NCBI GenBank assembly: GCA_965372795.1
Contig: CBDVDR010000004.1
Span: 64,001 to 128,000 of the forward strand
Direction: 5' to 3'
DNA: 64,000 nucleotides
Source: an uncultured bacterium
GTDB taxonomy: Bacteria; Zixibacteria; MSB-5A5; GN15; FEB-12
Below are positions 30,239 to 63,997 of the stretch, in pieces; position 1 is the first letter of the stretch; each line of letters begins with the position of its first letter. The notes below the pieces were generated by a model. The model was not told the origin of the DNA. It searched no databases and saw nothing but the letters and a program-made list of their open reading frames with translations. The position numbers and the translations under genes are program-made.

Positions 30239-30265
30239 TTAACCGATTGTTAATAATGCCGATAA
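30239..30265 (+). promoter_or_regulatory. Sigma28 (FliA/WhiG/SigD)-type promoter of the pseudopilin cluster
   Basis: TTAA-N15-GCCGATAA directly after the fdx terminator (consensus TAAA-N15-GCCGATAA). Confidence 0.65.
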
Positions 30266-30300
30266 ATCAAGGATAAGGGATGATTTATGGAGTTTTGGGA

Positions 30301-31050
30301 ATGAAACAAATAAACACAAATGGATATACATTGATTGAGATGATTCTTGTAATCATTATTTTATCAATAATTTCTTCAGTTGCCATAAAATCATTAAATA
30401 AATCAACAGAAACCGCTCGAGTAGAAGAGACTAAAAAAGAACTTATACAACTGGCTAATTCAATCAGAGGCAACCCTTCTGAGTTGTCAGGTGGTAAAAG
30501 AATTGATTTTGGTTATATTGGCGATATCGGAGCCCTGCCCAATAATTTAGATAACTTGGTTCAGGACCCCGGTCTGGGAAACTGGTCAGGACCTTATCTT
30601 CATGATAATTTTTATAATTCATCAGGAGCGATAGATTCTGAATTTAAAATTGATGGCTGGGGAAAATTGTATTCCTACAGTGGGGGAAACTTTATTTCAT
30701 CCTCCGGAAATGGGAGCGATATTACAGTTAACCTTGCAAATTCAGTTACAGACCTTCTTTATAATTCAGTCAGTTTTGTAATCACTGATATTAAATCATC
30801 ACCTCCGGGCTTAATATATAAAGATTCGGTTAGTTTTAATTTAACCATCCCTTCCGGTGCCGGAGGATGGACAACCATGCTCCGCTTCCCAACCGATGAT
30901 GGGATGGTACAATTTGATTCAATCCCAATCGGGATTCAAAATCTACAAATTGTATATTATCCAACGGCTGACACACTAATAAGAAAAATTCATGTTAATC
31001 CGGGCAGTTCGGTTTATATGGAAATTAGTTTAAACGAAGAGCTTTGGTAA
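30301..31050 (+). CDS. Type IV pilin/GspG-like pseudopilin 1
   Basis: G|YTLIE prepilin site, RIDFGYIGDIGALP..L..PG..WSGPY, DGWG; ORF track start 30280, likelier ATG 30301. Confidence 0.85.
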   Translation: MKQINTNGYTLIEMILVIIILSIISSVAIKSLNKSTETARVEETKKELIQLANSIRGNPSELSGGKRIDFGYIGDIGALPNNLDNLVQDPGLGNWSGPYLHDNFYNSSGAIDSEFKIDGWGKLYSYSGGNFISSSGNGSDITVNLANSVTDLLYNSVSFVITDIKSSPPGLIYKDSVSFNLTIPSGAGGWTTMLRFPTDDGMVQFDSIPIGIQNLQIVYYPTADTLIRKIHVNPGSSVYMEISLNEELW

Positions 31051-32285
31051 TGTTAAAAAAAATAAACAAAAACCAAGGCTTTAGCTTAATCGAACTACTT
31101 ATGGTTATAATTGTTGCTGGAATTTTAATGTCTATGGCGATGCAGTCAATGACTGCTTTGATGTCTGATGCCCGAAAAATTAAGACAGAGCAAGAACTCG
31201 AGATGCTTGCCGATGCTATAATCGGTAAACCTGAGATAATGACCAATGGCATCCGATCTGATTTTGGATATGTCGGCGATATTGGCTCCTTCCCGGTTAA
31301 TCTTGATGGATTATATCAGAACCCCGGTTATGCAACCTGGGATGGTCCTTATATTGAAAACAAATTTCAAGAGGATCTAACCGGATTTAAAACCGATGAA
31401 TGGGGCACTGCTTATTCATATTCTGGTGGAACAACTATCAGTTCAACTGGAAGCGGCTCAACGATTACAAAAATAATAACCAATGCGACCACAGATTATT
31501 TATATAATACGCTCAATGGGTCGATCAAAGATGCCAATGACTCTCTACCGGGATCAATTTATAAAGATTCTGTTGATATTAAAATTACAATTCCTAATGG
31601 AGCAGGCGGTTTACTCAATAAAACTTATCATCTTGATGCTCTGGGAAATTTCACTTTAGATTCACTCCCGGTTGGAAAACATCCTTTGAAAATTATTTAC
31701 ACCCCCAATGTAGATACTTTAAAAAGGTATGTTACTATTTTGCCTCGGCATAAAAACTATCATATGTACAGGTTTTCCTCCGCTTACTTTGGCAGCTCGC
31801 CAACTACCACTGACACCATGGTTCTTCGCCCTGATGGAGACGGATCACTTAATAATCTAACAACGTACAATTGTGCGAGTAATTTTGAATGTGTCGACGA
31901 AATTACACCGGATGAAGATAATAGTTATGTGATAAGAGCATCAGCTAACATTGCATCTGAAACCTATAGCTGTGAAAATCCATCCGGTACACCCGGAACC
32001 ATAGATAAAATAACAGTTTTTTGTCGAGCAAGACGGACATCTAATCTGGGAAACATCAAACCATCAATATTTACGGGTGGTCTTGAAGATAACGGGACAA
32101 CCTTTAATCTGTCAGATAATTATACTGATTATAGTTATAGCTGGATAACAAATCCAAGTTCAGGAACAGCCTGGACGTGGACAGATATAACAAACATGGA
32201 AATCGGATTAGCCCTTAAAGGTAAAAACGGAAGCAACCCATCCTACTGTACTCAGCTTTGGGTTGAAGTGGAATATACTTATTAG
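31050..32285 (+). CDS. Pseudopilin 2 with an extra Cys-containing C-terminal beta domain
   Basis: G|FSLIE, RSDFGYVGDIG..WDGPY, DEWG; ATG overlaps the upstream TAA. Confidence 0.85.
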   Translation: MLKKINKNQGFSLIELLMVIIVAGILMSMAMQSMTALMSDARKIKTEQELEMLADAIIGKPEIMTNGIRSDFGYVGDIGSFPVNLDGLYQNPGYATWDGPYIENKFQEDLTGFKTDEWGTAYSYSGGTTISSTGSGSTITKIITNATTDYLYNTLNGSIKDANDSLPGSIYKDSVDIKITIPNGAGGLLNKTYHLDALGNFTLDSLPVGKHPLKIIYTPNVDTLKRYVTILPRHKNYHMYRFSSAYFGSSPTTTDTMVLRPDGDGSLNNLTTYNCASNFECVDEITPDEDNSYVIRASANIASETYSCENPSGTPGTIDKITVFCRARRTSNLGNIKPSIFTGGLEDNGTTFNLSDNYTDYSYSWITNPSSGTAWTWTDITNMEIGLALKGKNGSNPSYCTQLWVEVEYTY

Positions 32286-32290
32286 GTTAC

Positions 32291-33448
32291 ATGATGATTA
32301 AAAACAATTCAACATATAATCAAAATGGATTTACTTTAATAGAAGTAGTCCTGGTGATAATAATTTCCGGTATTCTGCTAACAGTCGCTTTAAAGTCAGT
32401 CGGTCAATTCGCAGAAACATCAAAAGTTGAAAACACAAAAACCGAACTCGAACAGATAGCCATCGCCGTACACGGTAATCCGGAACTTGAAAGCAGAGGT
32501 ATCCGAACTGATTTTGGATACATCGGAGATGTCGGATCAATGCCTCCTGATCTTGATGCTCTGGTTTCAAACCCGGGAAGTTATTCAACCTGGAATGGTC
32601 CTTATATCAATTCCCGTTTTATTCAATTGACTAATGATTATAAACAGGATGCCTGGGGTACAGATTATTCGTTTAGCGGAGTTGAACTAATTTCAACCGG
32701 TTCCGGATCGGAGATTGTAAAAAAACTTTCTAATTCAACTTCGGATTTTATTTATAACAATGTCTCGGGTGTATTGCTCGATTTAAACGGCACCAGTCCG
32801 GGTCCGGTATATAAAGATTCTGTATCGGTTCAACTAACTATTCCAGACGGTTCAGGAAGTTACATTACCAAAGCAACCATTCCTGATAATGGAGGATATT
32901 TTTCATTTGATTCCATCCCGATTGGAACTCATGACATAAATTTAATTTATACCCCTGATAATGACACTCTAAAAAGATTCACAACGGTTTTGCCGGGTGC
33001 AAATTCATATGGGGAATATCTATTAGCGAATGATGTCTGGTATGATACAACAGCAGGTGGAATCATTCTTATACCTTCTTCCGATACTGTCTTTCAAAAT
33101 CCACAATGTAATAATTTTTCTTTCTGGATTATAAACAATACAATTGCTCCAATTACGATAAATTCACTTAAATTGGAATGGACTTCTCCCCCGACTGCTT
33201 ATTTTAAAGAAGTCTTGTGGAATTCTATTAAAGTAATCAATGAGCCTAATCCAAAAATCGCATCCGGCGATATTTTTCCCTTTATCGCTCCTCAAACATT
33301 GAATGCCGGTCAAAGAGCAAAGATTACAGCCAAAGCTTTTCGGAGTGCAGTAACTGGTGGATCCGCTGTCAATATGGAAAATATCTCAATAATTGTAACC
33401 CTCTCTGATGGTTCCACTTTTATAGTTCCTTTGGGGGCTTGTATATGA
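32291..33448 (+). CDS. Pseudopilin 3 with an extra Ig-like C-terminal domain
   Basis: G|FTLIE, RTDFGYIGDVG..WNGPY, DAWG. Confidence 0.85.
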   Translation: MMIKNNSTYNQNGFTLIEVVLVIIISGILLTVALKSVGQFAETSKVENTKTELEQIAIAVHGNPELESRGIRTDFGYIGDVGSMPPDLDALVSNPGSYSTWNGPYINSRFIQLTNDYKQDAWGTDYSFSGVELISTGSGSEIVKKLSNSTSDFIYNNVSGVLLDLNGTSPGPVYKDSVSVQLTIPDGSGSYITKATIPDNGGYFSFDSIPIGTHDINLIYTPDNDTLKRFTTVLPGANSYGEYLLANDVWYDTTAGGIILIPSSDTVFQNPQCNNFSFWIINNTIAPITINSLKLEWTSPPTAYFKEVLWNSIKVINEPNPKIASGDIFPFIAPQTLNAGQRAKITAKAFRSAVTGGSAVNMENISIIVTLSDGSTFIVPLGACI

Positions 33449-34182: not shown

Positions 34183-34208
34183 AAAAGGGTTAGATGACTA
34201 ACCCTTTT
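34181..34208. terminator. Bidirectional terminator between convergent genes
   Basis: AAAAAAGGGTTAG-ATGA-CTAACCCTTTT. Confidence 0.8.
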
Positions 34209-34212
34209 AGAT

Positions 34213-35355: not shown

Positions 35356-35437
35356 ATTTTCTCCAAATCTAATTTACATTTAATTTTGAGAATATCGTCT
35401 GGAATAGTGGATTAAACAAGCAAAATTCTTGATTGAA

Positions 35438-37603: not shown

Positions 37604-37659
37604 TAACTGTTATACTAATAAATCTATATGAAGTTGACAAGAAGATAGCGTGAATCTAA

Positions 37660-38646: not shown

Positions 38647-38748
38647 AATAAAGCAATTCTCTCTCCAATAATTTATTTCAGAGCAACAAAATAGGGGTCT
38701 CGCCATTGCTTGTCAATTGGATTTTCAACAGAGTTATTGTTGTAAATT

Positions 38749-39531: not shown

Positions 39532-39551
39532 AGAATATCAATTTTCTCCAA

Positions 39552-41929: not shown

Positions 41930-41930
41930 T

Positions 41931-43535
41931 TCATTTTTCCTTTTTAGCTAATTTCCCTTTAATGATTGTATCTTTTTTCAAACTATCGATTGTTTCAGGA
42001 TAATCTTCGACAAAATGCAAGCCTCTTGATTCTTTACGCATCAGAGCCGACTTTATAATCAATTTAGCCACCGTTGCCATATTTCTCAATTCGACAACTT
42101 TATAAGTTGCCGGAGTTGAAAGATAATAGGCTTCGATCCCTTGAGCAATAAGCTCGACTTTTTCCAAAGCTAAATTGAGTCTGTCAACAGATCTGACAAT
42201 CCCTACAAAATCCGACATCACGCGGCACAATTGTCGGCGGTCATGGGCAAGTAAAACTTTTTCACGCGGATACTGTAATGAAGAATGAATAGAATTATCA
42301 ACTGTGATCGTATCAGGAAGGGTAAACTTTTTAAAATAATCCATCGATTTTCTTGCCGCTTCTTCTGCCATAACGACCGCCTCAAGTAATGAATTTGAGG
42401 CTAATCTATTGGCGCCATGCATCCCGCTGAATGCAACTTCACCGGCAACAAACAAACCGGGTAGTTCTGTTTGCCCGCTTATATCTGAAACAATACCGCC
42501 ACAGACATAATGCGCAGCCGGGACAACCGGAATCGGTCGTTTGGTAATATCAAAACCTCTTCGCAGACATTCCTTATAAATATTGGGGAATCTATTTTTA
42601 ATAAACTCCGAATCAAGATGGCTGACATCCAACAACACAAATTCTTCGCCGCTCTCTTTTAATTCTTTGTCAACAGCACGTGCCACAATATCACGCGGTG
42701 CTAATTCTTTTAATTCATGCGTGCCATCCATAAAATATCTGCCGTCAATTGATTTCAACCGACCGCCCTCTCCCCTAACTGCCTCTGATATCAAAAACGG
42801 CCAACGTCCGGGAGTATAAAGCGAGGTTGGGTGGAATTGAATAAACTCCAAATTACCGATTGATAACCCAGCCCGATATGCCATAGCAACTCCATCACCG
42901 GTTGCAATTTTGGGATTAGTATTATGAAAATACACTTGCCCCATTCCACCACTGGCTAATAAAGTGACCGAGGCATAGAAGGCATCAAACTGACGATTCT
43001 CCTCAGCGAATACAAAAGCTCCAGCGCAAAATTCTTCACCCTTTAATTTGCCTTTAATAAGATCAAGAACTATATGGTCACGATAAATATCTATATTAGG
43101 ATAACTTCGACAGGCTTTTAAAAGAGCGCGTTCGATTTCTTTTCCGGTTAGATCTTTTGAGTGCAGAACCCGTTCCTGAGAATGACCTCCTTCACGCCCT
43201 AAATCGAAACTTCCATCAACTTGAGAAAAACGAACGCCTAAGGCAATAAGTTCTTCGATCACTTTTGGTCCGGCTTCAACAATCTGCTTTACAATCGATT
43301 CATTACAAAGACCGGCACCCGCTTTTAAGGTATCTTCAATATGAGAGTTAAAAGAATCAACTCCTGATAAAACAGCAGCAATTCCGCCCTGTGCTCGATT
43401 AGTGCTTGAGACAGTTTCACCTTTTTTTGTGACAATAGCAATTCTGGCATTAGGGTTTGCAGTAATTATCTTTACAGCATAAAACAACCCTGCAATACCC
43501 GAACCAATCACAAGATAATCATATCGTTTTTCCAT
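41931..43535 (-). CDS. nadB: L-aspartate oxidase
   Basis: GSGIAGL, AQGGIAAV, QFHPT, SEAVRGEG, HGANRLASNSLLE. Confidence 0.95.
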   Translation of the reverse strand: MEKRYDYLVIGSGIAGLFYAVKIITANPNARIAIVTKKGETVSSTNRAQGGIAAVLSGVDSFNSHIEDTLKAGAGLCNESIVKQIVEAGPKVIEELIALGVRFSQVDGSFDLGREGGHSQERVLHSKDLTGKEIERALLKACRSYPNIDIYRDHIVLDLIKGKLKGEEFCAGAFVFAEENRQFDAFYASVTLLASGGMGQVYFHNTNPKIATGDGVAMAYRAGLSIGNLEFIQFHPTSLYTPGRWPFLISEAVRGEGGRLKSIDGRYFMDGTHELKELAPRDIVARAVDKELKESGEEFVLLDVSHLDSEFIKNRFPNIYKECLRRGFDITKRPIPVVPAAHYVCGGIVSDISGQTELPGLFVAGEVAFSGMHGANRLASNSLLEAVVMAEEAARKSMDYFKKFTLPDTITVDNSIHSSLQYPREKVLLAHDRRQLCRVMSDFVGIVRSVDRLNLALEKVELIAQGIEAYYLSTPATYKVVELRNMATVAKLIIKSALMRKESRGLHFVEDYPETIDSLKKDTIIKGKLAKKEK

Positions 43536-44620
43536 CAGATAACCGCTTTTTTTAAATTCAATTTAGACAGCAAATTCTTTATCAATTTTTCTTCTCCCGG
43601 ATCAAGATCAATCACCTGATTAATATAATATATTTCTCTACCAAAATCAAAGTCACCCAATTTAACCCAATCTTTACCGGTTGTCACTATAACATCTGAA
43701 TCAAACAGGTCGGCTTTTGCTTTAATTTTTTTCAGAGTCTCTAAATCATAATCCTGATGATCTGAAAATTCCCAGGCAAAGTCAATATCAGTACTCAAAG
43801 CAGAAACCTGCTTTTTAAACGCCTTAAAATTACCAATCCCGGCAAAGATTAAGAGAGATTTATCCTCAAGATACTTAACTGACAAATTCCTCTCTTTGCC
43901 GACAAGTTCCGTTGCAGTAAATCGGGCATGGTATAAATCGACAAATGGATTATACGACAAGATTTCTTCTTTAAGTTTGGAAATATCACGGCTAAAATCA
44001 GACCGGGTGATAATTATCTGATCGGCACGGCTTAAAGCTGACAAAGATTCACGCAACACACCATAAGGGAAAAATTTCAACAACTTCTTTTTTACGGCAG
44101 CATCAAACGTTACAATATCAAAATTCCGATATAGTTTTTTGTGCTGAAAAGCATCATCTACAATCAATAGATCAACTTTATGCTGAGAAACCAAATTTTT
44201 TGCTGCCTCTGATTTCAAATTTGAAATTGAAAAAATTGCTTCAGGAAGTCTGTTAGCAAGAAATATAACTTCATCACCTATGTTTTCTGTTTTCATTTTA
44301 AGAAGTTTATATCCCCTCTCAACATAATCCTTATCAGATTTCCTACCATAGCCTGATGATACAATCCCAACTTTGAGACCTTCCTTGAGCAAAGCTTCAG
44401 CAATAAAAGCTACAACCGGAGTTTTCCCGGTTCCTCCAACGGAAATATTGCCTACCGAAATAACCGGAACATCTACTTTTACAGTTACTGATGTAAATGC
44501 AGAGTGGATTTTTTGTCCCGCTCGATATAGCCATGAAAACAACCATAACAAAAAGGCTGGTATCATCCAGATAGAAAATGGTTTACGATGAATAATTCTT
44601 TTCCAGATTTGCTCAAACAT
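43535..44620 (-). CDS. lpxK: Tetraacyldisaccharide 4'-kinase
   Basis: VGNISVGGTGKTP, GDE, DDAFQH, FSDH. Confidence 0.95.
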   Translation of the reverse strand: MFEQIWKRIIHRKPFSIWMIPAFLLWLFSWLYRAGQKIHSAFTSVTVKVDVPVISVGNISVGGTGKTPVVAFIAEALLKEGLKVGIVSSGYGRKSDKDYVERGYKLLKMKTENIGDEVIFLANRLPEAIFSISNLKSEAAKNLVSQHKVDLLIVDDAFQHKKLYRNFDIVTFDAAVKKKLLKFFPYGVLRESLSALSRADQIIITRSDFSRDISKLKEEILSYNPFVDLYHARFTATELVGKERNLSVKYLEDKSLLIFAGIGNFKAFKKQVSALSTDIDFAWEFSDHQDYDLETLKKIKAKADLFDSDVIVTTGKDWVKLGDFDFGREIYYINQVIDLDPGEEKLIKNLLSKLNLKKAVI

Positions 44621-45851
44621 TTTTTATTATCTTTAATATATATTCACCAGCATTTGAAGTTGGTGATCCTTTTTCATCAGTTTCGGTCTTGATGTTAAGC
44701 TTTAATTGCTTTAAATAAACTGATTCTACAACTGAAAACAAATCATCTTTTGAGTTAATTTGTCTTCCAAAATTATGCTCTAAAATATATTCAGAGGACT
44801 CTTTAACATTAGCAATGTAGGGTCCGTAAATTACCGGTGTACCAGCCCAAACCGGCTCAAGAATATTATGTCCGCCCTTATCAACCAGAGTACCGCCTAC
44901 AAAGGCTAAATCGGAAGCCAAATATAAATCATTCAATATCCCGATTTGATTAACCATGACAATATCTTCAGATTGATTAACTGATCCATATATTTTAAGT
45001 TTAATTTCGCCCTGAGTTAATTCATGGGATAATTGTTCACACCGCTCTATATGACGGGGAGCTAAAATCAGTTTAAAATTCTTATATTTCCCCTGCATCT
45101 TTTGAAGTAAACAAACTAATAATATTTCTTCCCCCGGTCGGGTTGATCCGGCAACTAATATAAAATCATCATCTGATAATCCCGCTCGATTTCTAATTTC
45201 TCTAATTCTTCCCTCGGATCGGTTCAAAATAGGGGCATCAAATTTCATATCTCCTGCTATAAATACTTTTGAAGGATCAGCTCCGCACCTGATATATCTA
45301 TCAGCATCAACTTTGGATTTTACGAACATTCTGGCATAGAATGGGAGAATCTTTTTCAAACTGCTCTTTAATAATTTATAGCGTCCAAAGGCTTTTTCCG
45401 ACATCCGACCATTAATCAAAACTACAGGAATATTTTTTTTTAAGGCTATTCTGAGAAAATTGAACCAGATTTCTGTCTCAGCAATAACAATGACTTTTGG
45501 TTTAATTTTATTGAATGTTTTGTTAACCGCTTGAGATGAATCTAATGGGAAAAAAGATATTGTTACATCATCTCCAAAATCTTTTATAGCGGTATTAAAA
45601 CCATTTTGAGTAAAGGTTGAGATATGCACTTTAATAGCAGGATTATTTTCCTTAAGAAATTTGACAATATGATTGATTACTTTGACCTCTCCCACCGAGG
45701 AAGCATGTATCCAAATATCAGCTTTTTTTGAATCAATTTCTCCAAGTCTCCCCTGCCAGAGTTGATCTCCGTTTTTGGCTTTTTTTGATACAAAGGGATA
45801 AATAACCAGATAAACTATTCCGGTTACTATTTTATATAGAAAAAGAATCAT
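44613..45851 (-). CDS. waaA: Kdo transferase
   Basis: WIHASSVGE, AETEIW, APRH, GGHNILEP. Confidence 0.95.
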   Translation of the reverse strand: MILFLYKIVTGIVYLVIYPFVSKKAKNGDQLWQGRLGEIDSKKADIWIHASSVGEVKVINHIVKFLKENNPAIKVHISTFTQNGFNTAIKDFGDDVTISFFPLDSSQAVNKTFNKIKPKVIVIAETEIWFNFLRIALKKNIPVVLINGRMSEKAFGRYKLLKSSLKKILPFYARMFVKSKVDADRYIRCGADPSKVFIAGDMKFDAPILNRSEGRIREIRNRAGLSDDDFILVAGSTRPGEEILLVCLLQKMQGKYKNFKLILAPRHIERCEQLSHELTQGEIKLKIYGSVNQSEDIVMVNQIGILNDLYLASDLAFVGGTLVDKGGHNILEPVWAGTPVIYGPYIANVKESSEYILEHNFGRQINSKDDLFSVVESVYLKQLKLNIKTETDEKGSPTSNAGEYILKIIKNV

Positions 45852-46969
45852 TTCAATTTCTCGCTGATTATCTTTGCAGTTCTTTCAGATGCTCCGGTTC
45901 CACCCAAAATTATTGGAATATTTTTCAGTTTCTCAACTGTTTGATCATAATATTCATTATCATTCCAAAATTTCTCAAGCTCTAAAAATATTCCTTCAGG
46001 AGAGGCATCATGTTGAATAAGTTCCGGAACAACTTTTTCGTCCATAACCAGATTTGCAAGGGCAATTTTATCAAGCTTGACAAGTCTTTTTGCAATCTGA
46101 AAAGTGATCTCTCCGGTACGATAGATCACTACCATGGGACGTCCGATAATTCCCGTTTCCAATGTTGCGGTACCAGAGGCGGTGACAACCATGGTGCTTT
46201 CAAATATTAACTGTCGGGCATTGTTGTATTCGATTGTGATGTCATCATCGGAATACTTATTTATCGCCTGTTCATAATCGTATACGCCTTTAATCGCCGC
46301 AACCTTTGCCTTTGTCCCATACTTGTTGTTAAATCTCTTGGCTGCCAGCAACATCGGTTCAAGCATCCTTTCGATTTCCTGTGGTCGCGATCCGGGAAGA
46401 AGCCCGATTGTTGCAGGTTCATCAATCTTTTTAGAGCTTAAAGAACTTATAAAATTAGACGGGATATCCTCCAGCAGATAATGACCTACAAACTCAGACT
46501 TAACATTATGATTATCAAAAAATTCTTTTTCAAAAGGAAGGATTACCAGACAGACATCAATCAACTCTCTTATATCATTAACACGATTTTTTCCCCAAGC
46601 CCAGACTTGCGGAGTAATGTAGTAAATGATAGGGATATTCAGTTCTTTTACTTTTTTTGCCAGACGTAGATTAAATCCCGGGTAGTCTACCAAAAGGATG
46701 ACATCAGGCTTATTAGTTTTTATTTCTTCAAGACAGGTATGAAATAATTTCCGAAAGAACAGATAATTGCGGGCAACTTCCCAAAACCCCAAAACAGCCA
46801 GATCTTTTCCTGAAGCTAACTGCTTTTGACCGAGTTTTTTTAAACGTTCTCCGCCCAACCCGGTAATATTTAAATCAGGGTATTTATGTTTGAGGACCTC
46901 GACAACTCTGGCGGAGGCATTATCACCGGAGGGATCTCCTGCGGAAAGAAATATCGAAGGACTTTCCAT
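45848..46969 (-). CDS. lpxB: Lipid A disaccharide synthase
   Basis: AGDPSGD, VDYPGFN, PQVWAW, LLPGSR, SGTATLE. Confidence 0.96.
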   Translation of the reverse strand: MESPSIFLSAGDPSGDNASARVVEVLKHKYPDLNITGLGGERLKKLGQKQLASGKDLAVLGFWEVARNYLFFRKLFHTCLEEIKTNKPDVILLVDYPGFNLRLAKKVKELNIPIIYYITPQVWAWGKNRVNDIRELIDVCLVILPFEKEFFDNHNVKSEFVGHYLLEDIPSNFISSLSSKKIDEPATIGLLPGSRPQEIERMLEPMLLAAKRFNNKYGTKAKVAAIKGVYDYEQAINKYSDDDITIEYNNARQLIFESTMVVTASGTATLETGIIGRPMVVIYRTGEITFQIAKRLVKLDKIALANLVMDEKVVPELIQHDASPEGIFLELEKFWNDNEYYDQTVEKLKNIPIILGGTGASERTAKIISEKLK

Positions 46970-47965
46970 TTACATGGTTTCTGTTTGAAGCATTTTTGCT
47001 GAAGAGACCTTACCAATTCGTTCAACTTCCAGAGCAATTCGCAGCGCTTCAGTAGCATCTTCAACTGAAACAGCCACCTCAGTATCATTAATTACAGAAC
47101 TTAAAAAAGCCTTGAGTTCATTGCCAAGCATATCTTCACCGGTATCATTTTTCTTTAAATATGAAAGATTTTTACCTGATTTACCCAATGGGAGAGTCAA
47201 CGATCCTTTGACCTTTTCTCCATTGGACAGCGTATAAATGTCTGCCTGTTTTTTTGCTAAATCAAGCGAGTAGTACCCTGATTTCTGGAAAATTCGTAAT
47301 TTTCGCATAGCATTCAAAGAGATTCTTGATGCGGTCAGATTTGCCACAGCGCCATTTTCGAAAGTTAATCTGGCATTGGCAATATCCACTTGATCGGATA
47401 TTACTGCAATTGCAGATGATTGAATATCTACGACCTTTGATTTAATCAGATGCAAAACCAAATCAATGTCATGGATCATTAAATCAAGAACCACCGCAAC
47501 ATCAGTTCCCCGAGGATCAAAAGCTGCTAAACGATGCGCCTCAACAAATGCCGGAGTGACACCGCTCTGTTTTACAGCAACAACAGCCGGATTAAATCGC
47601 TCAATCTGTCCGACGGTTACTTTAATTTTATGTTCTGAGGCAATTTTTTTCAGATGATTTGCTTCTTCAACAGTAGTTGTAATTGGCTTTTCTATCAGAC
47701 AATGGACATTTTTTTCTATCAGTTTTGAAGCAACCTCAAAATGAAGGCTTGTCGGAACAACGATAGACACCGCTTCAACATTTTCAGCTAATTCATCAAT
47801 GGTCTCAAAAGCTTTGATATTATATTCTTCTGAATATTGTTTGGCTTTTTCCGGGTCCACATCATAAAATCCAACTAAATCCGAAGCTTCAATCTGGCTA
47901 TACCAGCGAAGATGATGTCTTCCAAGAGCTCCAACTCCTATAACAGCAGTTTTTATTTTTCTCAA
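46970..47965 (-). CDS. Gfo/Idh/MocA oxidoreductase, probable UDP-GlcNAc 3-dehydrogenase (GnnA-like)
   Basis: GVGALG, IEKP, GQIERFNP, DLMIHDID, LTASRIS; abuts lpxB. Confidence 0.85.
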   Translation of the reverse strand: MRKIKTAVIGVGALGRHHLRWYSQIEASDLVGFYDVDPEKAKQYSEEYNIKAFETIDELAENVEAVSIVVPTSLHFEVASKLIEKNVHCLIEKPITTTVEEANHLKKIASEHKIKVTVGQIERFNPAVVAVKQSGVTPAFVEAHRLAAFDPRGTDVAVVLDLMIHDIDLVLHLIKSKVVDIQSSAIAVISDQVDIANARLTFENGAVANLTASRISLNAMRKLRIFQKSGYYSLDLAKKQADIYTLSNGEKVKGSLTLPLGKSGKNLSYLKKNDTGEDMLGNELKAFLSSVINDTEVAVSVEDATEALRIALEVERIGKVSSAKMLQTETM

Positions 47966-48052
47966 TCTATATCCTAACCAATTATTGCATTAATTTGATG
48001 AAAGATAATAGTCTGTAATCAGAAATAAAGCTGTTTTTGATAATAAGTTTCC

Positions 48053-48079
48053 TCAAATTATGGATAACTAAACCGATAA
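48053..48079 (+). promoter_or_regulatory. Sigma28-type promoter of the orphan gene at 48169
   Basis: TCAA-N15-ACCGATAA. Confidence 0.55.
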
Positions 48080-48168
48080 CTATTATAATAACTATAACTT
48101 GTGGTGGAGGGACAATTCCAGCCCATTGTTCCTACTCCATTGTGAACCAACGACTAACGCGAGAATCA

Positions 48169-49572
48169 ATGAGCACTCCTTTGATTACAACACCAACTCC
48201 AATCCCTGAAAAAAAATCTGAAATTAGTAACTCTCTTTTCATTAATTGGCAGGGAGGAAGCAATGAATTCAAACATAGTAATTTATTAGACAATATTGAT
48301 ATTGAGGATTATAAAACTATCTTTTTTGATCCAGTTGGTTACGCCATTGCTTATGGCTTATGGTCATCAGATGACAACCTGACAACAACAAAATATACCG
48401 ATATTGATGAAAAAGTATTTATTACTTTTATTACAAAAATCAGTCATTTTTTGTCGAAGATTCAAAAATTTCTCGATGGAGGCGGATGTTTCGTTATCAG
48501 ATCAAATATTCCTGATTCTCATATAAAAATAAGAAAAATAACATCCAAAGGTTCACAGGCTTACACTGAATCAGTGCTTTCAAGTTTTTTCTGGCTTGAA
48601 GATATAATCGGAAAATATACTCTAAAATTTTCCAATATAAAATCAATGAAGTTTCTCAAAAAAGATAATCCTTTCAATGAGACTCTTGGCAATACCGCAA
48701 TAGATAATATTCAGGCGGTTACTTGCGGTGAAAAAGGTAAGCAGGAAATAATTGCTCTGACAGGATCAAATTATAAAATTCCGGCAATTTCGAAAATAAT
48801 TCCCAAAACTAATTCTGGATGCGTGTATATTATTCCTATATTTTCACATAAAGATGAACAGGAACTCCTTCTCAAAACATTTAAAGAAATTAATAAATCG
48901 AAACAAAAAACGATTTCCAAACCAAAGTGGGTTGAATACTACAATAATCTGGTTGATGATTTAAATCCATTCCGAAAAACAATAGAACAAATCGAGCTTG
49001 AACTAACTGCGTTAAATAGACAAAAACAAGTTGCGGAAAAAAACCATAAGGAATTTGAAGGACTTATCAATTTACTTTACAACATTGATGATAATTATTT
49101 TTATGCTATAATTACCTCAATGAAGCTTCTCGGTTATAATTGCACCATTACCGACATAAATAACTATATTTTTATCGCCTCTGAAAATAATGAAAATGAA
49201 AACAAAGCCATTTTCGGAGCATGCGGGAATGAATCCGGCGTTATCACAATCAAACAATTTCAAGCATTTTATAAATCGTTTGTCGATTACAACGAGAAAA
49301 AACCAATCAAAGGATTCTTTATTGGCAATGCAGATTGCCTGCATGAACCTCTTAAAAGAGATAAGTGGTTTGATCAGGAAGTTATTGAACTTGCCCGACA
49401 AAAAGAAATTTGCCTGATACCTTCATATGAATTATTTACATCGGCAAGTTTCATTTTATACAAAACCGACAATGAAAACATTGATCAATTAAAGAATTCA
49501 ATTCGTAGAGATTTGCTTAACAGTGAAACAATGTTCAAGGTTAATCGAAAAAAATATAATATCAGATTATAA
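48169..49572 (+). CDS. Hypothetical protein: GATase-like N-terminal region, coiled coil, degenerate PD-(D/E)xK-like C-terminal domain
   Basis: Long ORF; likely start ATG 48169 (track start 48037); PKWV, coiled coil, LLGY, KGFFIGN, FDQEVIELA, ICLIPSYELF. Confidence 0.75.
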   Translation: MSTPLITTPTPIPEKKSEISNSLFINWQGGSNEFKHSNLLDNIDIEDYKTIFFDPVGYAIAYGLWSSDDNLTTTKYTDIDEKVFITFITKISHFLSKIQKFLDGGGCFVIRSNIPDSHIKIRKITSKGSQAYTESVLSSFFWLEDIIGKYTLKFSNIKSMKFLKKDNPFNETLGNTAIDNIQAVTCGEKGKQEIIALTGSNYKIPAISKIIPKTNSGCVYIIPIFSHKDEQELLLKTFKEINKSKQKTISKPKWVEYYNNLVDDLNPFRKTIEQIELELTALNRQKQVAEKNHKEFEGLINLLYNIDDNYFYAIITSMKLLGYNCTITDINNYIFIASENNENENKAIFGACGNESGVITIKQFQAFYKSFVDYNEKKPIKGFFIGNADCLHEPLKRDKWFDQEVIELARQKEICLIPSYELFTSASFILYKTDNENIDQLKNSIRRDLLNSETMFKVNRKKYNIRL

Positions 49573-49585
49573 AACCAAAATAATA

Positions 49586-50116
49586 TTATTTTCTCTTTAG
49601 AACATTTCTGTTACATGAGAAAAAATCCTTTTCAGGCATTGCCAGATCAAAATTAGAATGGTATTCATCCTGACTTATAATTACATAAGTAATACGTGCC
49701 CGCAATCCGGTGGGACCATTTTCAACCTGTTCAGTAACAAAAACGAAAGTCTTTCCATCAGCAGAGATTGAATCAAGGACATATTGATTAACAAATCCTT
49801 CGACATTAAACTGACGATAAACAAATTTATTACGGTTTTTATCAAAACTAATAAAACCATGATCTTCATGTACTTCACCTTTGGGATTCTTGTCCTGCGG
49901 TTCAAATACGGCTTTTGTTGAAACTTCAAAATATTTATTCTGTAAAGTTAAGTTATTTTTGATGGTCAGTGTTGAAGTACCCGATAGTCACTCGCCTGTG
50001 CCTTGCCATTCTCCCTCAAAAAACTTGAATGATGCCCACACATCCTCTTTGGAATCTTCCTGTGCAAATGCAATTACAGGCAAAAGTATCAATAAAATTA
50101 ATATTTTTTTCATCAT
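49586..50116 (-). pseudogene. Secreted lipocalin/nitrobindin-like beta-barrel protein gene interrupted by one in-frame TGA
   Basis: Manual translation: MMKKILILLILLPVIAFAQEDSKEDVWASFKFFEGEWQGTGE*LSGTS...PQDKNPKGEVHEDHGFISFDK...RQFNVEGFVNQY...RK-TAA; TGA at 49990-49988 (codon 43 of 177). Confidence 0.8.
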
Positions 50117-50238
50117 TCCCTTACTTTTTTTTTGAAATTACATTCAATGTCAGATTATTTTTATAAGTATACACTACAATAATTGACAGTTCAAGCTATA
50201 ATTAAATATCGCTGAATTATAAAGAGGATTAAAATTTG

Positions 50239-51012
50239 TTACTTCACTAAGCCCCTGGTAGAGGATTCGATAAAATCTAAAACTGTTTGAACTTCATCAA
50301 CAATTTCAACTTCACTTTTAATTCTTTCAACTGCTTGAGAAGTATTCAAATTACTGAAGAATAAAATCTTGAAAGTATTCTGAAGAGCTTTAATTGATTC
50401 TAATTTAAATCCGCGTCTTTTCAAACCGATCAAGTTCAAACCGGCTATTTTTAGGGGATATCCACCGACAAGGGAATACGGCACTATGTCTTGTTGCGCT
50501 CTAAAACCACCGCCAACCATTGCATGGCAGCCAATCTTTACAAACTGATGAACCGGAAGTACCCCGCCTAATATGGCAAAGTCACCAACTTCGATATGTC
50601 CGGCAAGATTTACAGAATTTGCCATAATAACATTGTCTCCGATAATACAATCGTGAGCCACATGCGAATAAGCCATCAGTAAACAATTTTCACCAACAAC
50701 CGTTTTGAACGAGTAATCGGTTCCACGATTAAATGTCACGTATTCACGAATAACGGTGTTATCACCAATTATCGCTTTGGTTTCTTCATCCCCGAATTTC
50801 AAATCCTGTGGAACAGTGCTGATTACGGCACCCTGAAAAACTTTGACATTTCTGCCAAGCTCGGCTCCATCGGCAAGTTGTACCATGGGACCGATCTGAG
50901 AACCTGCTCCGATCTTTACTTTATCTTCAATAATTGCATAAGGACCGATTGAAACATTATCACCGATCTCCGCTTTGGAAGAAACTATTGCTGTTTTATG
51001 AATATTTGTCAT
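50239..51012 (-). CDS. lpxA: UDP-N-acetylglucosamine acyltransferase
   Basis: Hexapeptide repeats, PQDLKF, IREYVT, AYSHVAHDC, VHQF, GLKRRGF. Confidence 0.96.
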   Translation of the reverse strand: MTNIHKTAIVSSKAEIGDNVSIGPYAIIEDKVKIGAGSQIGPMVQLADGAELGRNVKVFQGAVISTVPQDLKFGDEETKAIIGDNTVIREYVTFNRGTDYSFKTVVGENCLLMAYSHVAHDCIIGDNVIMANSVNLAGHIEVGDFAILGGVLPVHQFVKIGCHAMVGGGFRAQQDIVPYSLVGGYPLKIAGLNLIGLKRRGFKLESIKALQNTFKILFFSNLNTSQAVERIKSEVEIVDEVQTVLDFIESSTRGLVK

Positions 51013-52400
51013 CTGTCTACCACCATTGCCATAAAGTCAGCCGAAGCTACTAATTTATCTTCGACATACGCTTTGCCTGTCATCTTGCATGTATTCCTTC
51101 TAAAAGCCTGCATCTCAAGTTCGAATCTTAGTTGATCTCCCGGTTCGACCGGGCTGCGAAATTTGGCTTTATCAATTGACATAAAGTAAACAACTTTTGA
51201 TTGAGGGTCAGAAATTGCATTTAATAATAACACTCCACCTGCTTGAGCCATGGCTTCCAAAATTAGAACTCCCGGCATAATCGGATGCCCCGGAAAATGT
51301 CCCTGAAAAAATGGTTCGTTGATAGTAACATTTTTCATCGCCACAACTTTCTTTTCCGGCACTAAATCCAAAATTCTATCAATTAGCAAGAATGGGTAAC
51401 GATGCGGCATAATTTTCAGGATGGAATTTATATCAAAAAGAGCAGCACTTTTTTTAGAACTGAATTTACCGGCAATTTTTTTCTTCTTGTAAAGCTCACG
51501 CATTTTTTTTGCCAGAGCAACATTCGCCTTGTGCCCACTTCGGGCAGCAAGTACGTGTCCTTTAAATGGTACGCCAATTAATAAGAGATCACCCAATAAA
51601 TCCAATGTCTTATGTCGGACCGGTTCATTGTAAAACCTAAGCGGTATATCATTAATAATTCCCGTTTCGCCAACAAATGCTTTTCCTTTTATATTCAAGG
51701 CGTTTTTAATTCGATCAACTTCTATTTGTCCCAAATCTGAATCATAAATTACAATTGCATTATCCAGACCGCCGCCTTTGATCAGACCGGCACTTTTAAG
51801 CATCTCGACCTCAGTCAGAAAACAAAAAGTTCGGGCAGGGGCAAATTCATTTACGAATTCCTTTTCAAGGTCAACCAGGGTTGTATACTGGGTGCCTAAA
51901 GCAGGATTTTTATAATCTATCAAAAAAGTTATGCGAAGATCATCAGATGGCGTTACAACCAAATCAACATTACGATCCGATTCGCTGTATGCCATGGGTG
52001 AGTCGATCTCAAGATAATATTTATCTTCATCCTGAGTTTCAATGCCTGCTTCAAGAATAATATCAACATATGGTTTTGCTGACCCATCCCCAACCGGAGG
52101 TTCAGACTCGTCAAGTTCGACTATCATATTATCCAACTGCAAGCCGGCAAATGCCGCAAGAACATGTTCAACAGTATGGACTTTGGTCTCACCTTGCTGA
52201 AGGGTTGTCCCACGCGAAATATCAACCACATGATCAACATCAGCCTGAATCCATGGTTGGTCTTTCATGTCAGTGCGGACAAACCTGATCCCGGTATTCG
52301 GATCAGCCGGTTTAAATGTCATTTTGCAACTATTTCCGGTATGAAGTCCGACACCGGAGATAGATATTTCTTTTTTTATCGTGCGTTGTTTATCGTACAT
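51009..52400 (-). CDS. lpxC-fabZ: Bifunctional LpxC-FabZ fusion
   Basis: GVGLHTG, TVEH, ARTF, HKTLDLLGD (LpxC); MPHRYPFLLID, FFQGHFP..PIMPGVLILEAMAQ (FabZ). Confidence 0.97.
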   Translation of the reverse strand: MYDKQRTIKKEISISGVGLHTGNSCKMTFKPADPNTGIRFVRTDMKDQPWIQADVDHVVDISRGTTLQQGETKVHTVEHVLAAFAGLQLDNMIVELDESEPPVGDGSAKPYVDIILEAGIETQDEDKYYLEIDSPMAYSESDRNVDLVVTPSDDLRITFLIDYKNPALGTQYTTLVDLEKEFVNEFAPARTFCFLTEVEMLKSAGLIKGGGLDNAIVIYDSDLGQIEVDRIKNALNIKGKAFVGETGIINDIPLRFYNEPVRHKTLDLLGDLLLIGVPFKGHVLAARSGHKANVALAKKMRELYKKKKIAGKFSSKKSAALFDINSILKIMPHRYPFLLIDRILDLVPEKKVVAMKNVTINEPFFQGHFPGHPIMPGVLILEAMAQAGGVLLLNAISDPQSKVVYFMSIDKAKFRSPVEPGDQLRFELEMQAFRRNTCKMTGKAYVEDKLVASADFMAMVVDR

Positions 52401-53335: not shown

Positions 53336-53586
53336 TTTTCTCCTTTTTATCAAGAAAAACAGGAAAAAACAGAGATATGTCTACACCATCCGTATCACTT
53401 CAAAATTGAGAAAATTGATGAGGTTATATCACATGAATCACTTTTTTTTGAAATTAGAATTCAAATAATTTCAGAATTGACCGATTTATTTAAGATAAAG
53501 GATTTAATCAGGAATCTTTCATTTTAGCTTGAATCCCGATTTTTCCTATTTATGTTGTTTATAAAATTGTTATACAGGGATTAATT

Positions 53587-54351: not shown

Positions 54352-54396
54352 AATTAACTCTTTGGATGTATCAGTTTTTTATATATCTTAAATTCT

Positions 54397-57844: not shown

Positions 57845-57898
57845 AAAAAGCCGGCTTTCGAAATAAAAACCGACCTCACATTAAATTATCAATCATAT

Positions 57899-59215: not shown

Positions 59216-59242
59216 ATTCGATAAATCCCTTATTTAATGCTT

Positions 59243-59269
59243 TTATCGGTAAATACGATGAGATTTGAA
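59243..59269 (-). promoter_or_regulatory. Sigma28-type promoter candidate for the HDOD gene
   Basis: Minus strand TTCA-N15-ACCGATAA (or TCAA-N14), ending 28 nt before the ATG. Confidence 0.5.
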
Positions 59270-59299
59270 GCTGTTTTTTTAAGAAAGTTGAATTAAGTG

Positions 59300-61439: not shown

Positions 61440-63382
61440 TACTGATTTTCCTTTGTGGTATCCGGCGGATTTAACTCAATATCCATTCCGCCACCCCATT
61501 TTGAGTCCGTTTTCCAGTAATAATTATCTTTTCCAAATCCGGTATATTGATCCTTTCCACCTAAATCAATAAACAGTCCGATTGAACCGAACTCTCTTCG
61601 CGGATTACCATATCCGTGAGTATTTTTTGGATTCTTAATAAAATATCGGTCATCTCCGGCATTATCTATCATAATCCCAATACCGTTAGCCGAGCCGGCT
61701 GCCTGAGACAGATCGGTGGCGGTATAAGTATCATTGCCCTGTCGATCTAAAAGAAAACCACATGAATAATCATGCCCGCAACCCTGAGAGACGCCTTTTG
61801 AAAAATAAACATCACTGCCAAAATTATCCAAAAGAAGCCCCAAACTCATATGGGTTCCGGCACCCTGGGAATATTGGAATGACTGATAGTAATCATTCCC
61901 TTTTTCATCGGCAAGTATCCCCAGTGACCACCAGTAACTCGAACCCTGTCCGAATATATCAGTAATGTAGCTGTCGTTTCCTTCAAAATCGAGCAAAGCA
62001 CCAACCCCGCCTGAGAACATCGGACGCATCCCAATTGCAAACCCCTGTCCAAATGAATAGAAATGATCCTCATAGCGAAGAATATCTTTATATTTACCCC
62101 CGGTATAATAATTATCATTTCCCTTTAAATCAAAAATTGCTCCATACCCTTCAACAAAGGCGTACCCCTGAGCTGAATTGGAGGCGTAATAATTATCCCG
62201 GCCGTCTTCATCAATCAACAATCCCAATCCAAAACAACCGGCACCTTGAACAAAATTATCACCGTTATAGATATCATGCCCATCGGCATCATATAGAATA
62301 CCGAATCCAAAATAACCGCTGCCAATACCAAAAGATTTTGAGTCGTAGCGGTCATCACCTTCAAAGTCGATCAAAATTCCGGTTGAAAAACAACCCGACC
62401 CTATAACAAAATCAGATTTTGCGCGATAAGCATCATTTCCACTCAGATCAATTATAATTGTACTATGAGGATTCTTGGGGTCATATGAGAGGTCATAAAT
62501 ATCATCACCCCCAAAATCGAGAATGAATTTATAGTCGCCTTTATAATAATCATTGCCGGTACCACCGATTGCCCACCCTGATTGTTTTCCAAGATACGAA
62601 TTCAGATTAGAGTTATCCGGAACATAAACAGCATCTTTGAATATTTTATCAGCTGATATATTCTTAGATTTTATTTGCCCATGTAAATTTTTAACTTCCA
62701 TCAAAATTTCTCTTAGACAATCTATTCCAGCTGAAATAATTGGGTCTTTGTCAATTTTTCTTCCAAAAGTGACAAATTTTTCAGCATAGGCAGTTTCAGC
62801 CTTTTCGACAGAATCAATTTTATCGGGCGAATAGAATTCTTCTTCTTCCCGGATTACAAGCAGTTCCAAAAATTCTTTTTTTAGAAATGACCTTTCATCT
62901 TTACTTAGCAGAGCTAACGATTTCTCAGTTGATCTCGGAAGAATTACATCCAGATAAACAGCCGCCCGGGCAAGAAGTTGATTTAAAGTGATGTCAGTAA
63001 AATAAAGGGTGTATTTGCGTTTCATTTCCTCAGCTGATGCCTGATACGCCCGGTTGCGCCTCTGTTGATCTACCAGACTTAAGTCCTGAAATAAAATCCC
63101 GCTAATAATTTCAGGTTGTCCTTTAACATAAGAGGCTTTTAATTGTTCAGTATAATCAACCATCCCTAAGGGTGAGTCCATCAAATCAGCGACTAATTTT
63201 AAACGGAAAGAATCGATCTCGGTATAATCCTGACGGAATGAGATATCTTCTACTTTCAACCCAAGATATTCAGATAAATGAATCAATCCGAATTTTTCCG
63301 GTTTAACGGTTTTTGAATCTTGGGCAAACAGAGTTGAAGTGAAAAGTAGAAATAATACAATTATGATATTAGATTTTAACAT
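61439..63382 (-). CDS. Secreted Gly/Asp-rich repeat protein (about 13 DxxGxDxY units)
   Basis: Signal peptide; DFGGDDIY, DLSGNDAY, DFEGDDRY, DADGHDIY, DEDGRDNY ... DLGGKDQY. Confidence 0.8.
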   Translation of the reverse strand: MLKSNIIIVLFLLFTSTLFAQDSKTVKPEKFGLIHLSEYLGLKVEDISFRQDYTEIDSFRLKLVADLMDSPLGMVDYTEQLKASYVKGQPEIISGILFQDLSLVDQQRRNRAYQASAEEMKRKYTLYFTDITLNQLLARAAVYLDVILPRSTEKSLALLSKDERSFLKKEFLELLVIREEEEFYSPDKIDSVEKAETAYAEKFVTFGRKIDKDPIISAGIDCLREILMEVKNLHGQIKSKNISADKIFKDAVYVPDNSNLNSYLGKQSGWAIGGTGNDYYKGDYKFILDFGGDDIYDLSYDPKNPHSTIIIDLSGNDAYRAKSDFVIGSGCFSTGILIDFEGDDRYDSKSFGIGSGYFGFGILYDADGHDIYNGDNFVQGAGCFGLGLLIDEDGRDNYYASNSAQGYAFVEGYGAIFDLKGNDNYYTGGKYKDILRYEDHFYSFGQGFAIGMRPMFSGGVGALLDFEGNDSYITDIFGQGSSYWWSLGILADEKGNDYYQSFQYSQGAGTHMSLGLLLDNFGSDVYFSKGVSQGCGHDYSCGFLLDRQGNDTYTATDLSQAAGSANGIGIMIDNAGDDRYFIKNPKNTHGYGNPRREFGSIGLFIDLGGKDQYTGFGKDNYYWKTDSKWGGGMDIELNPPDTTKENQ

Positions 63383-63448
63383 ATAGAAAAATGAAATATA
63401 AATTAAAGGTAATCAACAATAATCAGCTATTAATAAATATTGATAATC

Positions 63449-63484
63449 AAAAAAAAACGCCCCAAAAAGGAGCGCTTTTTTTTA
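63449..63484 (-). terminator. Imperfect terminator after pilA
   Basis: A-run, CGCCCC-AAAAA-GGAGCG, T-run. Confidence 0.55.
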
Positions 63485-63499
63485 TTAAACTCGGATAAC

Positions 63500-63934
63500 T
63501 CAGTCAAGGACGTCATTATTACCAACAGTAACAGCGAGGTTACCAGCTTCGGTAATAGTCCATATATCCATAGTTGCATCATCATCAAGGTTAGCAGTCG
63601 CAGTCGCAGTAAATGTATTGGCGGCGGCAGCAATACTATATTCATAAATAGCTGTTGCACCAATTTCAACACCAATACTTGGGAAAGTTCCAGGGGCACT
63701 GGCACTACCAAATGTCTGGCCATCATCACCGTAAAAACCCTGTTCCTGACGGTATGTACGTTCCATGGTGTAAATCTGTTTCAGAATCTGTTTTGCTTCA
63801 GACTGTTTGGATTTTGTAGTAGCTTGCATAAATCTCGGAATAGCGAGAGCAGCCAAGATACCAATAATTACGACCACAATCATCAACTCGATGAGTGTGA
63901 AACCTTTCTGACGGTTGTGAAATTTTGAAAACAT
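63500..63934 (-). CDS. pilA: Type IVa major pilin
   Basis: G|FTLIELMIVVVIIGILAALAIPRF...SEAK; FTATATANLDDD..DIWTI; SD AGGAGG. Confidence 0.9.
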   Translation of the reverse strand: MFSKFHNRQKGFTLIELMIVVVIIGILAALAIPRFMQATTKSKQSEAKQILKQIYTMERTYRQEQGFYGDDGQTFGSASAPGTFPSIGVEIGATAIYEYSIAAAANTFTATATANLDDDATMDIWTITEAGNLAVTVGNNDVLD

Positions 63935-63989
63935 CTAAGGCCTCCTAAATAACGTTAATGGTTCTAATTCTCATTCATATCTGTCATAT

Positions 63990-63997
63990 TTATCGGC
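63990..63997 (-). promoter_or_regulatory. Sigma28-type -10 element upstream of pilA (-35 lies outside the window)
   Basis: Perfect GCCGATAA on the minus strand, 55 nt upstream of the pilA ATG. Confidence 0.6.

Follow-up and report, generated by a model that had tools for sequence, protein, structure and literature searches.

The window analyzed here is a stretch of 64,000 nucleotides (nt), positions 64001-128000 of contig C4 (CBDVDR010000004.1; contigs are denoted by C and a number) in the 3.35-Mb assembly (38% G + C, 69 contigs) of an uncultured Zixibacteria bacterium. It contains two sites that are very probably promoters of the flagellar sigma factor FliA (sigma-28), one before a cluster of four prepilin-like genes and the other before a gene for an HDOD-domain protein (Table 1). 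An earlier note on this DNA had proposed that a FliA/WhiG-like sigma factor controls a regulon centered on type IV pili rather than flagella. A connection of sigma-28 with type IV pili did prove real, because the same promoter type also stands before pilM and before a pilT-family ATPase gene, both outside the window. The words "rather than flagella" had to be given up: flagellin, FliG, and FlhA are encoded in the genome, and the flagellin gene and flgN carry promoters of the same type.

The promoter motif was examined across the whole genome. Genes were called crudely, as the longest open reading frames (ORFs) of at least 90 amino acids (aa) with greedy choice, which gave 2,637 genes and 88.6% coding DNA. 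Intergenic DNA with a same-strand start within 210 nt was taken as promoter zone, so that promoter zones, other intergenic DNA, and coding DNA make up 3.8%, 7.8%, and 88.5% of strand positions, respectively. The strict motif T[TA]AA-N15-16-GCCGATAA occurred 11 times in promoter zones, never in other intergenic DNA, and six times in coding DNA, always antisense. The looser form T[TAC]AA-N14-16-[GAT]CCGATA gave 54 matches in promoter zones, 6 in other intergenic DNA, and 134 in coding DNA, corresponding to 212, 11.6, and 22.6 per Mb. We also built a matrix of two blocks, trained on 168 orthologous sites from relatives, among which a spacer of 15 nt was preferred. With this matrix, 73 promoter-zone matches of at least 14 bits were found against 8-10 expected, and 100 of at least 12 bits against approximately 24-27, so the scan for promoter-position enrichment that the earlier note had suggested gave a strong signal. 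When the strict motif was extended to the ACCGATAA variant, 14 of the 17 matches in coding regions ran antisense to the gene, a bias that may stem from codon usage or from real antisense promoters.

A hexamer test comparing forward and reverse orientation in 1,545 upstream regions pointed the same way. CCGATA was found 114 times forward and 38 times in reverse (z = 6.2), a rank near those of the ribosome-binding site and of the sigma-70 -35 hexamer TTGACA (226 vs 89), and its forward excess of about 76 is consistent with the matrix count. From these figures we estimate that the genome has roughly 60-80 such promoters. The idea that CCGATA marks the main promoter of the phylum was considered and rejected, since TTGACA is the main oriented -35 hexamer and the primary sigma factor is RpoD-like. 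The dominance of TTGACA indicates an ordinary sigma-70-type housekeeping promoter, with CCGATA as a separate oriented promoter signal.

The 11 exact matches to the full consensus precede the prepilin cluster, pilM, flgN, a CheY-like gene by the fliA cluster, and genes for an NtrC-family sigma-54 activator, an FHA protein, a GGDEF-GAF cyclase, an SLT-LysM transglycosylase, a HEAT-repeat protein, a TPR protein, and tyrosyl-tRNA synthetase. Looser sites precede genes for a PilT/PilU-family ATPase (497.5 bits vs a cut-off of 319.1), a PilX_N protein, CheW, a methyl-accepting chemotaxis protein, a second HDOD protein, an HD-GYP-like protein, RpoN, and several kinases; those before housekeeping genes may be false positives.

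In the window itself, the core word RCCGATAA occurs 12 times, against 4.0 ± 2.1 in dinucleotide shuffles, and none of 100 shuffles reached 12. The four boxes on which the earlier note was built lie at the coordinates and on the strands that it gave. However, only 3 of the 12 matches are intergenic, correctly oriented, and preceded by T[TAC]AA 14-16 nt upstream (30239-30265, 48053-48079, and 59269-59243). A fourth, before pilA, lacks a -35 element, although its location is intergenic and its orientation correct. Because seven of the remaining eight fall within long ORFs and none of the eight has T[TAC]AA at that distance, promoter signal accounts for only part of the excess in the window. A sigma-28 -10 element, GCCGATAA or a close variant, is present before the prepilin cluster, the HDOD gene, and an orphan gene in the lipid A cluster (48072-48079), in each case with a TAAA-like -35 element 15 ± 1 nt away (TTAA-N15; TCAA-N14 or TTCA-N15; and TCAA-N15, respectively).

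Conservation was assessed in relatives from four families of one order. The best match per gene was taken in up to 30 genomes, the start was located by tblastn, and the upstream DNA was then read, with the motif scored within 130 nt of the start (300 nt for flagellin). Counts omit the genome of the window itself and loci short of upstream sequence, leaving up to 29 usable relatives. The background of the full loose motif, 0.7% per 130-nt window, was estimated from 1.34 Mb of other strand sequence at these loci.

The box before the prepilin cluster scored 23.2 bits with its own family left out of the matrix training and ranked second among all positions in the genome. In relatives, the full loose motif was found before the first prepilin gene in 19 of 28 genomes and NCCGATA in 27 of 28. 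The + strand of this intergenic region showed no sigma-70-like promoter, and a terminator-like hairpin (30199-30221) lies just 5' of the box. The four genes behind it likely form one transcription unit. All four proteins exceed the cut-offs of Pfam N_methyl and NCBIfam TIGR02532, with the cleavage/methylation motif followed by a hydrophobic helix. They are paralogs with 45-48% mutual identity, and a prepilin query found matches in 40 of 40 relatives (2-8 per genome). None of the named families (GspG/H/K, FimU, PilV/W/X, and ComG) reached its cut-off, with 20-37 bits against 49-400; because these matches are confined mainly to the N-terminal segment, we call the proteins prepilin-like and not minor pilins of a named type. 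They are far bigger than ordinary pilins, and the last one has a CarboxypepD_reg-like C-terminus.

The HDOD site, which can be read as TTCA-N15 or equally as TCAA-N14 before ACCGATAA, ends 27 nt before ATG 59215 and scored 18.5 bits, again with its own family left out. At this score or higher, the genome has 19 matches in promoter zones, 1 in other intergenic DNA, and 20 in coding DNA. The full loose motif was kept in 23 of 29 relatives, NCCGATA in 18, and [GAT][CT]CGATA in 28, and no sigma-70-like promoter was found in the intergenic region. The C-terminal part of the protein weakly resembles the dimerization region of histidine kinases, with a weak NtrB-like match at residues 254-385. Its paralog (C9:32715-34043) is also preceded by a box, TTAA-N16-GTCGATA. 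High matrix scores and retention at orthologous loci far above background thus support the proposal that the prepilin and HDOD sites are sigma-28 promoters.

Two pilus loci outside the window gave similar results. The gene pilM heads a pilM-pilN-pilO-(unknown)-pilQ cluster, in which PilM, PilN, PilO, and the secretin were identified, and it was preceded by the full loose motif in 22 of 29 relatives and by NCCGATA in 16 (24 when T is allowed at position 2). For the pilT-family gene the counts were 27 and 28 of 28. The sites persist over the four families while the flanking bases differ. In most relatives, a second sigma-28-like box, TAAAG...TCCGATAA or GCCGATAC, lies approximately 145-195 nt upstream of pilM and about 100 nt above the main promoter; in this genome it is TCCGATAA at -169, and it may be a tandem promoter or part of a small unannotated gene.

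The sigma factor that the earlier note had to assume is encoded at C4:32707-33381, 31 kb upstream of the window, in an flhA-flhF-fleN-fliA cluster. It matches TIGR02479 with 262.5 bits (cut-off 189.6) and NF005413 with 242.8 bits (cut-off 201), and it is the only member of the FliA/WhiG family in the genome, the next-best sigma factor being RpoD/RpoS-like. FliA was found in 39 of 40 relatives (38 over the cut-off) and flagellin also in 39 of 40, the same 81%-complete genome missing both. The regulon therefore does not replace flagella. Downstream of fliA (C4:24000-33400) are a DUF2225 gene and three genes for PilZ-domain proteins, one of them YcgR-like; behind these, a consensus sigma-28 box is followed by two CheY-like genes and FapA, which makes a compact control block for cyclic di-GMP (c-di-GMP) and motility.

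As an internal control, the motif was found before flgN, flagellin, and genes for CheW and CheY-like proteins. Of the positive controls, the flgN gene has TAAA-N16-GCCGATAA, and the flagellin gene (C11:42256) has TAAAGTT...GCCGATGT approximately 210 nt upstream of its start. In relatives, the loose motif was present within 300 nt of the flagellin start in 22 of 29 genomes and NCCGATA in 2 of 29. Across the order, the flagellin promoter lies approximately 190-230 nt before the start codon, so that the leader would be long and conserved and may be subject to post-transcriptional control of the CsrA/FliW type.

We propose that the single FliA reads T(T/A/C)AA-N15(16)-(G/A/T)CCGATA(A/T), of which the prepilin and HDOD sites are the two instances in the window, and that FliA-RNA polymerase would start 5-8 nt downstream of the -10 boxes, giving short leaders at both. 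The same promoter type would drive flagellin, the flgN operon, the CheW gene, and CheY-like regulators; the pilM-to-pilQ cluster, the PilT-family retraction ATPase, and a PilX-like gene; and the c-di-GMP-related genes for the GGDEF-GAF, HD-GYP-like, and second HDOD proteins. These genes would then be co-expressed in one FliA-dependent program comprising late flagellar functions, chemotaxis, second-messenger signaling, and the greater part of the type IV pilus apparatus, and the gear for swimming and for piliation is probably switched on together, both here and in the relatives.

The major pilin gene pilA appears to lie outside this program. Its protein gave 86 bits over the N-terminal 90 residues with the NCBIfam model of Myxococcus-type PilA, below the cut-off. 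The earlier note had read the GCCGATAA box that lies 55 nt before ATG 63934 as a sigma-28 promoter. Reading past the window end did not sustain this. T[TAC]AA is absent at the -35 position, and the DNA there, GGGCACGCACCTTGCCGATAA, forms a sigma-54 -24/-12 promoter whose -24 element GGCAC lies 5-9 nt beyond the end (C4:128005-128009) and whose -12 element TTGC overlaps the box. The promoter reads GGGCACGCACCTTGC, with GG and GC 10 nt apart in TGGCAC-N5-TTGC. In 21 of 29 relatives, GG[CT]A[CT]-N5-TTGC lies 64-89 nt upstream of the pilA start, and no such pattern was found in relatives upstream of the other genes examined in this way (the first prepilin gene, HDOD, pilM, pilT, flagellin, mreB, a CPBP gene, and an NtrC-family activator gene). 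RpoN, with all three Pfam domains, is encoded at C13:94739-96130, together with many sigma-54 activators elsewhere in the genome. The simplest reading is that pilA is sigma-54-dependent and would need sigma-54 with an activator. A second pilin paralog (C4:128241-128666), 65% identical to pilA, lies directly upstream of it past the window end, and two or three tandem pilins occur in many relatives.

The response regulator at C2:101767, an NtrC-family sigma-54 activator, was considered as PilR and rejected, as its neighborhood includes a subtilase gene and small genes of unknown function but no gene for a PilS-like kinase, and its nearest NCBIfam models (AtoC, NtrC, and PEP-CTERM regulators) are all below cut-off. 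A GCCGATA/NCCGATA box precedes this gene in 25 of 29 relatives and the full loose motif in 2. Speculatively, this box could put pilA indirectly under FliA, although nothing ties the regulator to pilA. Upstream of rpoN, TAAA-N16-TCCGATA is found at 59 nt; if it is real, sigma-28 would feed into sigma-54 levels. One can go further and imagine FliA as the master switch of an order-wide joint "motile cell" program of approximately 60-80 promoters. The flagellar checkpoint that frees sigma-28 would then also release pilMNO-pilQ, the retraction ATPase, the prepilin-like fiber proteins, c-di-GMP enzymes, and HDOD proteins, and the candidate boxes before rpoN and the NtrC-family activator gene would add a feed-forward path from sigma-28 through sigma-54 to pilA. 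We offer this wider scheme tentatively and think it less likely than not.

Could the boxes in the window be chance matches of a short, fairly A + T-rich word in a 38% G + C genome, with no promoter function? Several figures lean this way: RCCGATAA lies mostly in coding DNA (437 of 505 matches in the genome), as do seven of the window matches, the density of ACCGATAA alone in promoter zones is only about double that in other intergenic DNA, the site before the CPBP gene is not conserved, and a good sigma-70-like promoter overlies the orphan-gene site. Chance is nevertheless excluded for the prepilin and HDOD sites by matrix scores that stay high with the own family left out and by conservation (19-27 of 28 and 23-28 of 29, depending on the form of the motif) against the background of 0.7%, and the genome-wide orientation bias and promoter-zone enrichment are strong. 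Overall, chance is very improbable. It is also quite unlikely that the bipartite motif, though real, is read not by FliA but by a different sigma factor or by a DNA-binding protein that regulates pilus and signaling genes. Such a reader would suit the finding that pilus sites favor GCCGATA(A/T) and flagellin sites in the order GCCGAT(G/T)(A/T), as well as the variation of the -35 element by family (TCAAGAT at pilT, TTAAC at pilM, and TAAAC at mreB), and the genome encodes several extracytoplasmic function (ECF) sigma factors, including two in the window. Promoters of ECF sigma factors typically have a GAAC-type -35 and a CGT-type -10 element. By comparison, the motif has both elements and the spacing of the published sigma-28 consensus, as far as that consensus is quoted in PMC8325347, it stands before flgN and flagellin of the same genome, and the only FliA/WhiG-family sigma factor encoded here is found in 39 of 40 relatives, which keep the motif.

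At pilA, the sigma-54 reading has to be set against a dual promoter, in which GCCGATAA would also serve as a sigma-28 promoter without a -35 element and FliA would act directly. In favor of this, the -10 box matches perfectly and alone reaches 14.1 bits, about ten of the closer relatives retain TTGCCGAT, and GCCGAT and NCCGATA occur within 130 nt in 9 and 6 of 29 relatives, respectively. However, relatives, like this genome, have no T[TAC]AA at the -35 position (full motif in 0-1 of 29), and in distant relatives TTGC is followed by AATAG, CATAA, or AAAGA while GGCAC-N5-TTGC stays (21 of 29), which makes direct action of FliA on pilA rather doubtful. For the FliA reading of the prepilin and HDOD sites, other points must be counted on the negative side. 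Dependence on FliA is read from the identity of the motif. The -35 elements are degenerate (TTAA, TAAA, TCAA, and TTCA), position 1 of the -10 element is A and not G at the HDOD and orphan sites, and T[TA]AA-N15-16-ACCGATAA is less enriched when taken alone (3 matches in promoter zones, 2 in other intergenic DNA, and 11 in coding DNA). The prepilin box ends 14 nt before ATG 30280, so that hardly any leader would remain; ATG 30302 would be a more suitable start. The crude gene calls cause zone errors, as at pilA, which was put into the wrong zone, and the relatives are kin, so that counts across them overstate independence. For FlgM, the usual control of FliA activity, Pfam PF04316 had no match in the genome, no further search for anti-sigma factors being made.

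Control of type IV pili by sigma factors of the sigma-28 family has already been published for Rubrobacter and Actinoplanes. In Rubrobacter radiotolerans and R. xylanophilus, WhiG recognizes a -35 TAAA and a -10 GCCGATAA before type IV pilus operons and c-di-GMP turnover genes (Schumacher et al., 2021, PMC8325347). Of 20 predicted WhiG sites, 12 were confirmed by start-site mapping, three being in the pilus cluster and five before diguanylate cyclase or phosphodiesterase genes (PMC8325347). The consensus and the kinds of gene behind it, for pili and c-di-GMP turnover, are the same as here in a different phylum. As the cited text describes it, Rubrobacter WhiG is held by the c-di-GMP-armed anti-sigma factor RsiG and has been studied as a pilus regulon (PMC8325347), whereas the sigma factor here is encoded in a flagellar gene cluster, and the same type of promoter stands before flagellin and flgN. 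In zoospores of Actinoplanes missouriensis, pili and flagella are both transcribed by FliA-like sigma factors (Kimura 2019, Jang 2016, and Hashiguchi 2020, cited in PMC8325347). Our case, predicted from genes, is like it in having flagellar and type IV pilus genes of one organism under a WhiG/FliA-like sigma factor. It differs, by that summary, in having a single FliA, where Actinoplanes has several FliA-family sigma factors tied to sporangium development, and in placing the major pilin on sigma-54 while the pilus machine, the retraction ATPase, and prepilin-like genes have sigma-28 boxes. A 2026 preprint predicts regulons of this kind across Actinomycetota (PMC12871210).

The nearest flagellar parallels are the class 3 or class IV FliA promoters of Enterobacteria, Vibrio, and Legionella, with the consensus of Helmann (1991) as quoted in PMC8325347. 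Legionella FliA acts on non-flagellar genes, and in L. oakridgensis it persists and acts without flagella (PMC5655016). The present system resembles these in promoter architecture, in the flhA-flhF-fleN-fliA cluster, and in its non-flagellar regulon members. Type IV pilus genes are not among the FliA targets given in the parts of the Legionella account used here (PMC5655016), whereas in the present genome at least three pilus loci have conserved sites.

In Proteobacteria, pilA is usually driven by sigma-54 and PilR. The RpoN2-PilRX system of Xanthomonas oryzae is an example of control of this type (PMC7170775), and pilA of the present genome resembles such systems in its conserved GGCAC-N5-TTGC and in the encoded RpoN and sigma-54 activators. 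Two features stand out here: conservation extends over an entire order in a distant phylum, and the pilus machine goes with sigma-28 but the pilin with sigma-54. Among the literature mentioning Zixibacteria, flagella, and pili, no title on regulation was found, which does not show that none is in print.

These results suggest that sigma-28 control of type IV pili is no actinobacterial oddity, as it would operate in a flagellated lineage of a distant phylum with pili and flagella co-regulated and not used as alternatives. The split between sigma-28 for the machine and sigma-54 for the major pilin suggests a two-key control of piliation. The regulon is concrete and testable for a lineage known only from assembled genomes, and it predicts which surface structures are made together. 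For annotation, T(T/A/C)AA-N15-(G/A/T)CCGATA would mark approximately 5% of transcription units in these genomes.

Table 1. Predicted promoter sites and associated genes in the window (positions count from the first nucleotide of the window)
Feature	Position	Strand	Details
Predicted sigma-28-type promoter, prepilin cluster	30239..30265	+	-35 TTAA 30239-30242, N15, -10 GCCGATAA 30258-30265
Four tandem prepilin-like genes, 256/413/385/247 aa	30280..34182	+	Prepilin N-terminal cleavage/methylation motif in each
Predicted sigma-28-type promoter, HDOD gene	59243..59269	-	-35 TTCAA 59269-59265, -10 ACCGATAA 59250-59243
HDOD-domain protein, 438 aa	57899..59215	-	Pfam HDOD 199 bits, HD 38 bits
pilA, major type IV pilin, 144 aa	63500..63934	-	Pfam N_methyl 43.6 bits
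Sigma-54 -12 element of pilA	63990..63999	-	TTGC 63999-63996, overlapping GCCGATAA 63997-63990; conserved pattern
Candidate sigma-28-type promoter, orphan gene	48053..48079	+	TCAA-N15-ACCGATAA; ambiguous
Orphan gene, 467 aa from ATG 48169 (to 511 aa)	48169..49572 (from TTG 48037)	+	In lipid A cluster
Weak sigma-28-like site, mreB	8775..8801	-	TAAAC-N15-TTCGATAT; 11.2 bits
Site before CPBP (Rce1-like) gene	53461..53487	+	TCAA-N15-ACCGATTT; 10.6 bits

The remaining sites in the window are less clear. All four boxes of the earlier note had been described as intergenic, which is correct for three; that of the orphan gene lies within the longest ORF (start TTG 48037) and is intergenic only if the start is GTG 48142 or ATG 48169. 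The site scored 16.2 bits with the all-family matrix, a level at which promoter-zone matches are mostly real (41 vs approximately 2-3 expected). The sigma-28 reading is weakened by an overlapping sigma-70-like TGGATA-N17-TATAAT (48061-48089), by the presence of homologs in only 3 of 40 relatives, and by the homologous loci, of which 2 of 4 show TAAA-N16-ACCGATTT or TAAA-N16-GCCGAAAT with a degenerate -10 element. We put sigma-28 use at this site at about even odds.

The two weaker sites of the earlier note, before mreB and the CPBP gene, both exist as sequence and differ in conservation. Before mreB, the form kept in relatives is TAAAC-N15-nnCGATA(T/A), and T[TAC]AA-N14-16-nnCGATA was found in 20 of 28, typically as gTAAACt approximately 60 nt before the start. 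The full loose motif was found in 10 of 28 and NCCGATA in 2. Since GC at positions 1-2 of the -10 element is replaced, the site may be a divergent or weak sigma-28 member, if it is a member at all. The CPBP site did not hold up, with the full motif in 4 of 29 relatives and NCCGATA in 7, and the gene often lies directly behind another gene.

A scan of the whole window against Rfam at the gathering threshold gave no matches. The orphan protein matched no Pfam, NCBIfam, or PADLOC family, and its nearest ESM Atlas clusters are unnamed hypothetical proteins from several phyla. Its gene interrupts an otherwise standard lipid A cluster (43535-52400) encoding LpxK, Kdo transferase, LpxB, LpxA, and an LpxC-FabZ fusion, and it may be a recent insertion. 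The fusion is a single ORF of 463 aa (51009-52400) that joins LpxC to a FabA/FabZ-like dehydratase, an arrangement typical of the Bacteroidota-Chlorobiota group.

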